A DNA stretch of 63,627 nt, counting the filler, from Candidatus Woesearchaeota archaeon (GTDB taxonomy: Archaea; Nanobdellota; Nanobdellia; Woesearchaeales; BM511), in NCBI GenBank assembly GCA_023266675.1. It is 5 parts of 5 records of this genome, joined end to end, with 100 filler letters (N's around TTAATTAATTAA, not from the genome) between each part and the next. Parts side by side here need not be neighbours in the genome. Positions count along the whole stretch, not along the records: positions 35,398 to 57,360 come from JAHFPP010000014.1; positions 57,461 to 63,627 come from JAHFPP010000069.1; 3 more parts are not named here. The stretch is one strand, 5' to 3'. Below are positions 57,001-63,627 of the stretch, piece after piece. Position 1 is the first letter of the stretch. Every line of letters begins with the position of its first letter. A program made the position numbers.

Positions 57001-60000
57001 TCAATCTTTTTTTAAGTATTGTTTTTATAAGTGCATCAGTTTATCGTATTTTTAATTTTAATGCAGGAATTATTGAATTTGATAGATTCGGGTTTTTAAC
57101 AGAGTATAGCGCGTTTTTTGTATTTTTTATAATAACGCTTGAATTATTTATTGCGGTTTTTATGCTTCTTGAAAGATATCAAAAGTACTCATTAAAGGCA
57201 GGACTGGTATTTTTGTCAGTTCCGATATTGATATCTTTTGTTAAATTTCCACAGGAATCATTTTCTAATTTGGACGTGTTATTCACGTTTAAGATAGAAC
57301 CAACTAGTTTTTTGTTACATATAATGTATATGCTGATTATGTTTGTGATGTTATTGAAGANNNNNNNNNNNNNNNNNNNNNNNNNNNNNNNNNNNNNNNN
57401 NNNNTTAATTAATTAANNNNNNNNNNNNNNNNNNNNNNNNNNNNNNNNNNNNNNNNNNNNTCGCCAGTTGTCAGCGAGGCTAAGGACTATCACAAAAAAG
57501 TAATAGTCCGAACTGTTTTGGTAAAACGCAAGAAAATGCAAAATCGCATTTTCTGCGCACAGAAAACTTTGTTTTCTTGTGCTTTTTCTTAAAAAGGTGA
57601 ACCGTTTCGTCAGTTGACGCTCGAGATTAAGGACTATTTTAGAAAATAGCCCGAATTATAATATTTTTCTCAAAGATTTTTAAAAGAAATAATCTTTTTA
57701 ACCTAAACAAACAGGACTAAAGAAAGAATTGTCATTCATCAAATCCTTTGTATTGTCACTAAACTGCATATTGCCTGCTGTGTCAACAGGTACAACGTAA
57801 AAGCAGATTTTTTTGCTTATGTCAAGACCTGATATTTCTGCTTCAAATTTATCATTATTAACCTGTATTGAGTTTGTATTATAATTGAGTGGAGTCATAT
57901 CTCCTTGTGTGTAATATATTTTATAATTACTTAATTCTCTATCTGCGTCAAAGTCTGAGCCGTCAATATTTTTTCTTGGCTTTGCTGCCCAGGTTATTTT
58001 TAATTTTTTATTGTCAATATCTTTTACGCCAAAAAAAGTGAATCCTAAAAGCGGATATGTTGCCGGAGGCAATGTGTCTTTGACATCAATTATCTTGAAA
58101 TTTGTCCTTCCTTTGTCAAAGTCTTCCATATTGACGTTTCCAAATCGGTCTATAGCCGCGATTGCAACGTAATATTTTTCACTTGTTAGGAAATTTATTC
58201 TAGCAAAATATTCATACAAATTTTCATTCTCATCCTCAATCTGGTACAAAGCACCTATTTTTGGAATTAATTTTCCAGACTTTTTTGTTTCAGATTCTAA
58301 GTAATTGTATTGAACTGTTATCTTGCTGTTTTCAAATGGTTTTTTTACTTCTGGTTTTTGAAGGTCAATTGATGATACGTCCTCTCTTTTTCCAATCTCA
58401 AACTCTTTTTTAGCTATGCCTGATGAAATATAATCTGACGCGTCAGACAGTTCTTTGTATGTTTTTCCTGTCAATACGTCTTTTGAGATAAAAACTGCGA
58501 ATTTTACAGTGTCGTCATCAGGGTATTCCTGGCTCCATTTGATAATGGCTTCCTTTTCAGATAATAATGAATCTGGCTGAGTTATATCCTGAATTATTGG
58601 AGGAGGAATTATATCCTTTAACGTGAATGCAAACTTGATATCTTTGCGAATATTTGCTACAGAGTTCTTATTTTTATCATACACGGGTATCAGTGTTTTT
58701 GTCTTTACACAAAGCTTAACTGTGTCTTTTTTTATTGAACACACTTCTTTTGGATTATTCAATGCCTCCTGTGATTTAACATTATAGTCCGAATCACTGA
58801 TAAATGAAATCATGCTGCCTGTTTTTTTAAGATAAAATGGTTTATCAAATTGAAGAGTATTATACATAAATTCTTTGGAATTTATTATTCCCTCTTTTGA
58901 AACTTTAAGTGAATAAGTAATATCATTTTTTTTGTCAAAAGACAATATCAAAACATCTTTCTTATCCAAAAATGTTCCTGCAAGACCAAGTTTATTATTT
59001 GAAAGCCTGACTATGTCAGCGTTGTCTTTTGACATTTTTACGTCATTAGTATCAGTTATTTCTATCCTAAATTCAGACTTTGAAGGGATATCATTTGGAA
59101 AATTTATCTTGCAGTAACAGCTTGTTTCAGTTGAATTTGCGCACAAAGAATAACTTTCTGCAAATGAATAGTATACCTTATTTTCAGGAATCTCACAATC
59201 TGTCTGCCAGTCAATATTTGGCTCTACTGACTTTGCGTTAGTTAATATGTTATCTGTAAAATCCTTTGGGTTTGTTGATGATAGGTAATTCTGGCTTAAT
59301 TTTTTTATTGCTGTAAAAATCTTATTATATATATCAAGATCAAAATTAAAGTCTGTCTTGAACGCTGGTGTAAAGGAATACTGTCCAATGCTGTCGTATA
59401 CTGCTGATGGTGATGAATAATCGTAAGAGCTTTTGGAAACCCCACTAGTGTCGTCTCCAGTAACACCACCTATCTGCCCGCATGCTGTGTTGTATATGTT
59501 ATAGACTCTTTGCGGATATTGAACACCGTATCCTGGATAATTGCATTTATCCTTGCCTTTAACGTCGTACCTGTAATAATCGTTTCCTTTTGGTACATCG
59601 GTTCTATAAATTTCTGTGCATCCTTTAAAGATTGCTTCATCAAGTTTGTATTGCCCTGACTTGTAATAATTGATAATTGTGGATATTGCCCCGCGGTTAT
59701 AGGAATACAATACAAGAGTTGTCTTGTCCTGCATTGATAATTCTTTTCCGTATTTTTCAACATCATTAAATTTCTGAAGATAAATTTTTATTCCTTCTTT
59801 TATCTGCGAATCCACATCAGGACATTTCTTTTGTCTTAAACATGCATCATCAACCTGCATTATCCCTCCATCTGCAGTGCTTTTTCCATTTGCTCTAAGC
59901 TCATCGGCATTCATGCAAGAAGATTCTGTTGAGACCAAAGACATTATCAATAATGGGTCAACGTCTAAATTGTATTGTTTGATGTATTTTTGGAATATGT

Positions 60001-63000: not shown

Positions 63001-63627
63001 CGCCGTTTTGATCTTTTTCAACTTTTGGCGCCGCAACAAAATCAGCAACTGGCATGTTTGACTGAAAAAGAAGAAATTTTGAAGTCTTTGAAGGCGAGAG
63101 GAGAGGCTCAACATTGTATGGGTTTGCCTGTACATAATTCTTGTTTATTGTTATCTTAAGCTCTTTTGCATGCTTGCTGTTCTCATCCGGGTAATTAAGC
63201 TGCACGTCGTATGGAGATGCCTGAAGCGATTCGATGACTAGGCCAATGTCTTTTGTAAGAAACTCGCGTTCAAAGTATGAGCTTTGCGCAACCGCATTCG
63301 TGAAACTAAGAAGTATTAAGAACACCGCGAAAACTATAATTAATGGAAACAGCGGCCCCAAAACTAATTCCTGAAAATTCCCTCTTTTTGTTGAGAATAA
63401 CCTCATTGACTTAATACTGCGTTTAGACGTTTAAATAGTTTACTAAAAGAAATACGATTGATCATTAAATTAATTAAAGAAAAATAAATTGTGAAAATTC
63501 ATAATCATTTGAAAAAAATATAAATAAAAATAATTTTAGAATAGATTATATTATTTCTCAAATTTTGAGATTGGTTTTTCTGCGTTACTGAATGGAAAAG
63601 GTCTTTTGTTTGAAAGAAAAACCATGT

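Follow-up and report, generated by a model that had tools for sequence, protein, structure and literature searches.

Can an archaeon carry murein hydrolases on a pilin-type scaffold, and against which cells would it direct them? These questions are raised by a group of genes in Candidatus Woesearchaeota DNA. The window analysed here is a stretch of 63,627 nucleotides joined from five parts of one genome, and the genes lie on its last part, a contig of 6.2 kb. The host is a DPANN archaeon (Nanobdellota-type) from groundwater with a small genome (1.22 Mb, 95.9% complete, 1395 ORFs). Its archaeal assignment was based on L15e and Atlas taxa; SSU rRNA was not found in the genome. Four ORFs of 1215, 158, 177, and 353 aa, designated P0001 to P0004, run in the same direction on the minus strand (Table 1), reproducing the operon that the initial annotation had described as g00919-g00922. 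The three gene junctions are all 4-nt overlaps (GTGA/ATGA), and P0001 is the last gene of this translationally coupled four-gene unit. The one RNA run from the same sample gave no coverage of the contig, which argues neither for nor against expression. P0002, P0003, and P0004 each have positional homologues in relatives, and searches of Pfam, NCBIfam, and PHROGs yielded no significant match for any of them. A weak Pfam match to CofB_C (E = 0.06) was dismissed as chance.

Table 1. Features of the P0001-P0004 locus, with positions counted along the window.
Feature	Positions	Strand	Description
P0001	57698..61345	-	1215 aa; GTG start overlaps stop of gene upstream (GTGA)
Signal and hydrophobic helix	61238..61345	-	Residues 1-36; class-III-like, MKFGKKA/TEF, with putative cleavage site at the slash
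Head carrier module	60851..61237	-	Residues 37-165; conserved; no known family or fold matched
M23/LytM domain	60296..60829	-	Residues 173-350; Tyr208 at first zinc-ligand His position; D212, H264, H299, H301 present
Linker	60044..60295	-	Residues 351-434; conserved Cys-containing stretch, then Pro/Thr/Ser-rich spacer of low confidence
GH23 lytic transglycosylase / goose-lysozyme-like domain (predicted)	59465..60043	-	Residues 435-627; catalytic Glu474 in 'TES', GGIMQV (493), YSYNRG (547)
Conserved region	58613..59398	-	Residues 650-911; YSFTPAF motif, helical part, then beta-sandwiches
FN3-like tail (predicted)	57701..58612	-	Residues 912-1215; two beta-sandwich domains
P0002	61342..61818	-	158 aa; N-terminus class-III-like; positional homologues immediately upstream of head gene in relatives
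P0003	61815..62348	-	177 aa; N-terminus class-III-like; conserved family, R55 and R81 invariant across 11 rows
P0004	62345..63406	-	353 aa; N-terminus class-III-like; putative degenerate Amidase_3-group member, 3/3 metal ligands lost
Putative promoter region	63407..63627	-	AT-rich, 221 bp, from P0004 upstream to contig end

P0001 would be an extracellular murein hydrolase anchored at its N-terminus, with a predicted order of signal and helix, head, M23/LytM domain, GH23 domain, conserved region, and two FN3-like domains. The N-terminus (MKFGKKA/TEFGTAMLVIVTIIIFISAGL) consists of a short basic leader ending in Gly/Ala and some 20 hydrophobic residues, and residues 4-36 are helical in the predicted structure (pLDDT 70-95). 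The head contains helices at residues 40-78 and 108-127 and a hairpin at 139-152. Its Cys88 and Cys104 are invariant in a six-way alignment of relatives, which reproduced the previously reported pattern of a conserved head and tail around a variable middle. Spacer residues 389-420 had a pLDDT below 50 in the predicted structure, and residues 660-910 were scarcely covered in fold searches. The tail ends in two FN3-like domains. Of the 'giant pilin' originally described, the single 1215-aa ORF stands, but it corresponds to two fused genes, which stand apart in some relatives.

The sole Pfam match of P0001 was Peptidase_M23 (PF01551), over the range already annotated (residues 208-307, E = 9.2e-17); the score was 61.5 bits versus a gathering cut-off of 28.7 bits. 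The domain has an M23 beta-fold, and its zinc site is incomplete. Indeed, the reported replacement of the first ligand was confirmed: the first His of HxxxD is replaced by Tyr208. D212 and H301 are there, and the catalytic histidines H264 (LHxD) and H299 (first His of HxH) are retained. At the position of Tyr208, 29 of the 39 relatives aligned have His, and most relatives keep every M23 ligand. Because Tyr208 occupies the first zinc-ligand position, the M23/LytM domain of P0001 is probably impaired.

M23 had been taken as the only such domain of P0001. However, residues 435-627 correspond to a GH23 domain that Pfam overlooked. A GH23 profile of 45 sequences matched the solved enzymes g-type lysozyme (3wyh, 8.4e-8), MltC (2e-4), and MltF (1.3e-3). 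E474-S475 of P0001 line up with the ES of g-type lysozyme, Glu occupies the position of E474 in 36 of the 45 aligned rows, and the residues adopt a lysozyme-like helical fold. Pfam SLT (PF01464) gave no match to P0001 at E ≤ 1 and none in a six-frame search of the genome, and the relative P0006 gave a weak Lysozyme_like match (E = 0.0088). The GH23 block is common to five of the six aligned relatives, and the sixth, P0009, has a canonical Pfam SLT domain instead. SLT is therefore a constant part of the six proteins and not, as first proposed, an alternative cargo to M23. Judged by its motifs, with Glu474 intact, the GH23 domain is the best-equipped catalytic module of P0001 and a predicted enzyme.

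The neighbour P0004 gave no Pfam match itself. Its orthologous group was assigned to Amidase_3 using profile A4 (CwlV 1jwq, 5.6e-7; 4rn7, 6.8e-7), and Pfam Amidase_3 matches were found in orthologues at three of eight scanned loci (L019, L021, and L022). P0004 reads 'VDMFYTPSD' where the orthologues have 'D(P/A)xHGG', and the Glu and second His columns are replaced too. Thus, the H/E/H zinc ligands are absent from P0004, whereas its orthologues retain them. P0004 is a degenerate Amidase_3 relative in which all three ligands are lost.

The family proved much larger than the 'only five relatives' initially reported. An exhaustive phmmer search with P0001 residues 1-1200 returned 3320 proteins at E ≤ 1e-3, 249 at E ≤ 1e-10, and 19 at E ≤ 1e-30 (HMMER), and the head was present in 109 of the best 150 matches. 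Searched by itself, the head had matches in 139 of the 401 genomes of a phylum sample, single-contig genomes among them; this sample includes four unpublished genomes, all with a head match, without which the count is 135 of 397. A word-indexed search returned the same six clusters as before with their Pfam labels unchanged, and searching genome contigs and metagenome contigs with alignment A1 yielded no confirmed relative. The gene cluster is conserved, phylum-wide, and mostly single-copy.

The earlier proposal that the head carries exchangeable cell-wall hydrolases was supported by the Pfam cargo of 53 head-bearing relatives, drawn from the first half of the set of 109. This cargo comprised M23 (33), SLT (18), Amidase_2 (3), and, once each, VanY, Peptidase_M15_4, Glucosaminidase, NlpC/P60, YkuD, and GDSL. 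Murein-directed domains were found on 43 of the 53 proteins.

All four ORFs of the unit begin with a short basic leader ending in K/R-G/A and a hydrophobic helix, which bears out the prepilin-like N-termini ascribed to them and the statement that the upstream neighbours share the signal type of P0001. A plain signal anchor would look the same, with a basic leader and then a helix, which counts against a class III assignment. In the best 150 phmmer matches, [KR][GAS] with a hydrophobic stretch after it was found in 94 of the 109 head-bearing proteins versus 7 of 41 matches without the head. The commonest +1 residue in the head-bearing proteins is Gln (27/94). P0001 has Thr-Glu at +1/+2, which is not the family's commonest and counts against a prepilin-filament reading. 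No pilin Pfam model (Pilin_N, class III signal model) matched P0001-P0004 at E ≤ 1, and the P0001 head matched no pilin family or pilin fold. Elsewhere in the genome, L037:2077-2622 gave a weak Pilin_N match (E = 3.3e-4) at 21.9 bits, below the cut-off of 25.2 bits.

In 10 of the 12 relatives examined, whose loci were selected among strong matches and not at random, the head gene closes a run of 7-12 genes that point the same way and have class-III-like signals. These runs include 81-100-aa pilin-like genes and further murein hydrolases. In the single-contig relative L016, the head gene is found alone, without a run. Of the 107 genes that lie upstream of the head gene in the runs, counted over the 12 relatives' loci and the present contig, 98 passed the [KR][GAS]-plus-helix screen; the same tolerant screen was passed by 104 of the 1395 ORFs of this genome (7.5%). 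The cluster adjoins RPA, YdjM, and RadA genes in relatives.

As listed in the initial annotation, the genome contains a prepilin peptidase, three T2SSE ATPases, and T2SSF genes. Specifically, one Peptidase_A24 gene (G000:C58:1041-1400), four T2SSE matches (three of them strong), and four T2SSF matches were found. The T2SSE genes are on contigs C5, C58, and C80, and there are two ATPase/platform loci in the genome. In the loci scanned, no assembly ATPase or platform gene was detected in or beside the cluster. The 6.2-kb contig carrying P0001-P0004 has no T2SSE gene, and in none of five relatives checked was T2SSE in or beside the cluster, being on other contigs or, where it shares the contig, at distances of approximately 40 and 60 kb.

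The predicted complex of the globular parts of P0003 and P0002 with the head scored 0.41 versus 0.02 for the best control, in a range (≤0.60) that holds only 18 of 157 solved complexes plus both of the mismatched pairs that passed. The mark used for complex prediction was reached by 116 of the 157 solved complexes and 2 of 215 mismatched pairs. At least 65% of contacts were shared between the runs, and the partner had a pLDDT of 45-53. The prediction lends weak support to an association of P0003 and P0002 with the head.

Our preferred reading of the locus, to which we assign a probability of about 0.55, is a surface apparatus directed at bacteria that degrades murein, is anchored in prepilin fashion, and may be borne on a filament. 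P0001 and its partner proteins would be exported, trimmed by the genome's single prepilin peptidase, and kept in the membrane by the N-terminal helix. They may then be assembled into a short pilus, pseudopilus, or bindosome-like surface complex, presumably by the type-IV-filament ATPase/platform genes located elsewhere in the genome. Such a complex would press glycan- and peptide-cutting enzymes onto the bacterial sacculus for attachment, penetration, or feeding.

Plain membrane-anchored surface enzymes could account for several of these observations. An uncleaved signal anchor would then hold the hydrolases on the cell envelope, with no type-IV-filament assembly, in keeping with the lack of an ATPase or platform gene in the cluster and its surroundings, with a head that matched no pilin family or pilin fold, and with the fraction of the genome's ORFs that pass the tolerant screen. 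GH23-plus-tail proteins without the head, moreover, begin with ordinary signal or transmembrane segments. We consider this explanation somewhat unlikely: the [KR][GA]-Q motif is enriched specifically on head proteins, the short proteins in the runs hold little beyond signal and helix, like major pilins, and the genome has both a prepilin peptidase and two ATPase/platform sets. P0001 of this archaeon might instead serve mainly as a murein-binding adhesin, its degenerate LytM domain and amidase-like neighbour binding or regulating in the manner of EnvC and NlpD without cutting. Tyr208 and the lost ligands of P0004, both at positions that relatives largely conserve, would fit such a role. It is nevertheless unlikely, as the GH23 domain retains Glu474 and the other family motifs, and four of the five M23 catalytic-site residues are still present. 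EnvC and NlpD (PDB 4bh5, 8c0j) are degenerate LytM factors that activate Amidase_3 amidases; P0001 differs in having lost one ligand only, in that the partner amidase is itself degenerate, and in that most relatives are ligand-complete. Digestion of free murein debris or dead bacteria for amino sugars and peptides, without contact with living bacteria, appears less probable still. The cargo spans nearly every murein bond (glycan, MurNAc-L-Ala, cross-bridge, and D-Ala-D-Ala), which would accord with complete degradation; the archaeon is dependent and its genome small, and carbon recycling by DPANN archaea has already been proposed (PMC9723730). However, all components are cell-anchored and none is released, the FN3-like stalk domains and the tethering would restrict reach to dispersed polymer, and no muropeptide uptake or catabolic genes were seen within the loci scanned.

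The target could in principle be an archaeal envelope, as the initial annotation cautioned: the wall of the cell itself, or pseudomurein if the host is a methanogen. The known DPANN hosts are archaea (PMC8204110). This is very improbable. The genome, at 95.9% completeness, has no Transpeptidase or Mur_ligase_M match; since it lacks murein synthesis genes, bacteria are the likely target, in agreement with the initial annotation. Further, the cargo includes D-Ala-D-Ala peptidases (VanY, M15_4), MurNAc-L-Ala amidases (Amidase_2, Amidase_3), and YkuD, whose substrates, given the established chemistry of pseudomurein, are absent from it. Finally, a short contig without a marker gene, bearing M23 and GH23 domains that are typically bacterial or phage, might have been mis-binned from a bacterium (e.g., a CPR bacterium) or a virus, so that the genes would not be archaeal. 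This artefact was rejected as scarcely credible: the GC content of the contig (0.333) is close to that of the genome (0.343), the head occurs across the same archaeal phylum, single-contig genomes included, relatives have the cluster next to archaeal RPA and RadA genes, and the nearest Atlas clusters are 100% archaeal. A viral origin was rejected because PHROGs matches were limited to the M23 stretch.

Parts of the proposed apparatus have counterparts in described systems. Large DPANN transglycosylases have been published (PMC8204110; Vigneron et al. 2022, PMC9723730); they belong to the same lineage as P0001 and are likewise large extracellular proteins with a GH23/SLT domain, for which binding or degradation of the bacterial wall was proposed. 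The portions of these two accounts considered here do not mention a class-III/pilin-type signal, a head module, a pilin-like operon, or the wider hydrolase set (M23, Amidase_2/3, VanY). We found no paper describing a pilin-type scaffold for DPANN murein hydrolases. In bacteria, modular type IV pilins include PilB (vWA) and PilC (lectin) of Streptococcus sanguinis (Raynaud et al. 2021, PMC8179133), and one peptidase-type module is listed among them. Like P0001, these have a large functional module placed after a class III signal and an N-terminal carrier, and their cargo varies across relatives. They are bacterial and have the IPR012902 pilin motif and a solved pilin fold, whereas P0001 has an archaeal host, a carrier without a recognisable pilin fold, and murein hydrolase cargo.

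The Sulfolobus bindosome, in which sugar-binding proteins with class III signals are assembled by the Bas system (PMC3047682), is an archaeal precedent for functional, non-fibre proteins with such signals being assembled at the surface by a type-IV-filament-like system. Its cargo is solute-binding proteins for uptake, in contrast to the wall hydrolases of the P0001 family. Strock et al. (2025, PMC12352652) reported archaeal peptidoglycan hydrolases that kill bacteria and noted that four Nanoarchaeia genomes encode M23 homologues. These resemble the P0001 family in comprising M23-type and other archaeal murein hydrolases and in their anti-bacterial interpretation; they are described as secreted and modular with cell-wall-binding domains such as PG_binding_1, and the terms pili, pilin, and class III are absent from the main text. 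The wall-penetrating phage-tail enzyme phi29 gp13 (PDB 3csq) similarly combines lysozyme-like and M23 domains. P0001 differs from it in domain order and carrier, has no accompanying phage structural genes, and matches PHROGs in the M23 stretch only.

For most Woesearchaeota/Pacearchaeota-type DPANN archaea, neither hosts nor lifestyle are established, and published hints of bacterial targets have so far consisted of isolated 'large lytic transglycosylase' genes. Those enzymes are now set within a conserved, phylum-wide cluster of prepilin-type proteins whose exchangeable cargo has a chemistry specific to bacterial murein. This brings archaea under the 'modular pilin' idea known from bacteria and gives a testable model of the way in which an archaeon could take hold of a bacterial wall and breach it, with the head, the pilin candidates, the peptidase site, and both hydrolase domains (GH23 and M23) as its defined parts. 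The combination of two wall-cutting modules and a pilin-type signal, in an operon of pilin-like proteins conserved across the phylum, suggests that bacteria are physically attacked by these archaea or serve them as food. More tentatively, and with considerable doubt, Woesearchaeales/Pacearchaeales-type DPANN archaea may build a dedicated 'muralytic' organelle derived from type IV filaments, in which the minor subunits would carry interchangeable murein hydrolases on a lineage-specific head and a short pilus or pseudopilus would dock onto bacteria and breach their walls. If true, this organelle would be a device for cross-domain predation or parasitism without a described counterpart.

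P0001, a 1215-aa protein, is encoded by the last of four head-to-tail ORFs on the minus strand (P0004, P0003, P0002 and P0001; 353, 177, 158 and 1215 aa). Neighbouring ORFs overlap by 4 nt at all three junctions (ATGA, ATGA and GTGA), and the unit is preceded by 221 AT-rich bases. Pfam matched P0001 to Peptidase_M23 alone (residues 208-307, E 9.2e-17) and returned no match for P0002, P0003 or P0004. In NCBIfam, M23 matches alone were obtained, all sub-threshold. Two hairpin-like inverted repeats, spotted by eye in the minus-strand sequence 3' of the P0001 stop (window 57461-57697), could act as terminators or belong to a repeat element. 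At 57461-57640, several short run X1 contigs with loose ends stack up, a hint that this element is repeated.

The window (63.6 kb) joins five contigs of one metagenome-assembled genome, with N runs between them, and the operon is on the last of these (C50; 6167 bp, GC 0.333). The genome comprises 1.22 Mb in 83 contigs (GC 0.343; completeness 95.86%, contamination 0.9%). No SSU rRNA was found in it; it is archaeal since contig C46 carries ribosomal protein L15e. The source sequencing runs are labelled groundwater metagenome. The ESM-Atlas clusters closest to the N-terminal 170 residues of P0001 were unnamed and archaeal, Nanobdellota being the most frequent.

The initial annotation described the ORFs, the M23 match and six clusters with a conserved N-terminal head, a variable middle and a conserved C-terminal tail. 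Pfam, a word-indexed protein search, which gave the same six clusters, and their alignment reproduced this description. The family is nevertheless large rather than small. An exhaustive phmmer search with P0001 residues 1-1200 yielded 3320 proteins at E ≤ 1e-3, of which 249 reached ≤ 1e-10 and 19 reached ≤ 1e-30. The matches fell on distinct sections of the query: some on the head and M23 (proteins of ~330-360 aa), others on the block 420-640 alone or the tail alone. Among 401 sampled genomes (281 genera) of this archaeon's phylum, P0001 as a whole matched 133 genomes and 105 genera, and its first 165 residues matched 139 genomes and 109 genera; four of the 139 are flagged unpublished, and excluding them leaves 135 of 397. 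Matched genomes, including single-contig ones, almost always had one head.

A profile of the globular part of the head (residues 33-165) matched 109 of the best 150 phmmer proteins. An N-terminal [KR][GAS] motif followed by a helix was present in 94 of these 109, with Gln the commonest next residue (27/94), and in 7 of the 41 matches lacking the head. The 15 head-bearing proteins without the motif mostly begin within the helix, suggesting that their genes were called too short. Pfam was run on 53 of the head-bearing proteins: 43 carried murein-directed domains, 9 had no match and 1 had FN3 alone. The domains were M23 (33), SLT (18), Amidase_2 (3) and, once each, VanY, Peptidase_M15_4, Glucosaminidase, NlpC/P60, YkuD and GDSL. 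The M23 and GH23 shares are inflated, as the query itself contains both; the other types were recruited through the head alone. Several cargo enzymes are of types known to cut bonds that are present in bacterial murein and absent from pseudomurein. In this genome, Transpeptidase and Mur_ligase_M had no match. The enzyme nature of the cargo and its specificity for the bacterial wall are well supported. The earlier proposal of exchangeable hydrolases on the head stands as a carrier with varied, mostly murein-directed cargo, and falls as a six-member family.

P0001 is not limited to M23, as had been thought, and holds a second catalytic domain. The block directly before the tail, which five of the six relatives share, contains the motifs TES, GGIMQV and YNRG. 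A 45-sequence profile of this block matched solved GH23 enzymes (goose-type lysozyme, 8.4e-8; MltC, 2e-4; MltF, 1.3e-3), and its Glu-Ser pair aligned to their catalytic ES. Glu474 is present in 36 of the 45 aligned rows, and the domain is missing from 7 of the others. An AlphaFold model of residues 420-1215 had a mean pLDDT of 86.2. The sixth relative, P0009, has a canonical Pfam SLT domain in place of the block. A lytic transglycosylase is therefore common to all six, and SLT does not stand in for M23. The last 300 residues of P0001 form two FN3-like domains; residues 650-911 received no assignment from the searches made. For the neighbouring P0004, the orthologous-group profile matched CwlV (5.6e-7), and phmmer connected it with orthologues from three relatives that carry Pfam Amidase_3. 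All three metal ligands are gone from P0004. Since the M23 module and P0004 both lack metal ligands in this genome, GH23 is the best-equipped catalytic module here.

Twelve loci of relatives were chosen, non-randomly, from the stronger whole-protein matches. In ten, 7-12 co-directional genes form a run with the head gene as its last member, and their products start with a basic leader ending in [KR][GAS] and a hydrophobic helix; the remaining runs comprise 1 and 2 genes. A tolerant N-terminal screen was passed by 98 of 107 run genes (12 loci and this contig) and by 104 of 1395 ORFs of this genome. The conserved upstream order is a ~300-350-aa gene (Amidase_3 in some), two ~160-200-aa genes and the head gene. 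The runs also contain 81-100-aa genes with hardly more than signal and helix. The setting is chromosomal, as RPA, YdjM and RadA genes lie downstream. P0001 is a fusion, because head-plus-enzyme and GH23-plus-tail are two adjoining genes in L019, L020, L023 and L024. Near the cluster, relatives encode a lipoprotein-like Kazal-type protease-inhibitor domain protein, a Peptidase_C39-like protein and a 2022-aa subtilase (Peptidase_S8) protein (L015:7997-8584, L015:6231-6791 and L022:13834-19901). One relative has a polysaccharide deacetylase gene directly downstream (L023:13503-14240), and another a class-III-like (prepilin-type) run protein with a GDSL esterase domain (L015:13397-15106); these could further modify murein, e.g. 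by de-N-acetylation or de-O-acetylation. In the relatives' loci L040 (G310:C11:1-17000) and L041 (G047:C11:73400-90000), genes for very large secreted proteins (as long as 2019 and 3346 aa) immediately precede the class-III run at its 5' end and share its strand.

In this genome, the remaining parts appear to be divided between contigs C47 and C34. The C47 genes adjoin a 1114-aa TSP3-repeat protein and a 1653-aa Big_13 surface protein. Downstream of the C34 tandem genes are class-III-like proteins of 372, 999, 138 and 486 aa; neither these nor the tandem genes had a Pfam match. The C34 set probably belongs to the same system and was separated from it by the assembly. Another class-III-like run, including a 1576-aa protein, lies outside the window at G000:C2:31740-37814.

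Locations of the GH23 region and of candidate system components in this genome
Feature	Location	Remark
First domain of the 420-1215 model	P0001 residues 435-627	GH23 region
Three tandem 91-100-aa genes, near-identical class-III-like N-termini	G000:C34:15104-24795 (L036:6805-16496), outside window	Candidate major pilins
Four class-III-like genes (179, 171, 364, 171 aa)	G000:C47 (L035:8302-19360), outside window	N-terminus and order homologous to 5' part of relatives' clusters
T2SSE/PilB3_C ATPase	End of C58 (L037:17687-19240)	Preceded by four pilin-like genes
Two T2SSF platform genes	Start of C80 (L039:126-2747)	First genes of the contig

Assembly into a filament was weighed against plain membrane anchoring, one of the two main rivals. 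The relatives' loci scanned contained no ATPase or platform gene, and T2SSE genes were on other contigs or 40-60 kb off in all five relatives checked. This genome encodes a single prepilin peptidase, its only Peptidase_A24, on C58, a contig that also carries a weak Pilin_N protein. Its two ATPase/platform loci are on C58/C80, which probably adjoin, and on C5. Complex prediction pairing the head with the globular portions of P0003 and P0002 scored 0.41, against 0.02 for the best control. Of 157 solved complexes, 116 attained this mark, as did 2 of 215 mismatches; 18 of the 157 and both passing mismatches did so at 0.60 or under. Runs agreed in at least 65% of contacts, with a partner pLDDT of 45-53; the models weakly suggest that the three may form a complex. 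We consider anchoring alone unlikely, and scavenging, the other main rival, improbable.

Judged by title and abstract, no paper retrieved joins DPANN pilin-type signals with murein enzymes; supplementary tables were outside this search. Archaeal peptidoglycan hydrolases kill bacteria, in a report whose main text lacks 'pili', 'pilin' and 'class III' (PMC12352652). A 2026 survey of archaeal type-4-filament systems describes them as rare in DPANN, and it lacks 'peptidoglycan', 'hydrolase', 'M23' and 'transglycosylase' (PMC13705601). The nearest concepts are bacterial modular pilins for head plus cargo (PMC8179133) and the Sulfolobus bindosome for class-III-signal surface proteins (PMC3047682).

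The finding is real and broader than first described. The system occurs across the phylum, mostly in single copy: exchangeable murein hydrolases are borne on a lineage-specific head that follows a prepilin-type signal, within a battery of pilin-like genes. We infer signal cleavage, filament assembly and activity. With a probability of roughly 55%, the system would be a prepilin-anchored, possibly filament-borne wall-breaching apparatus.
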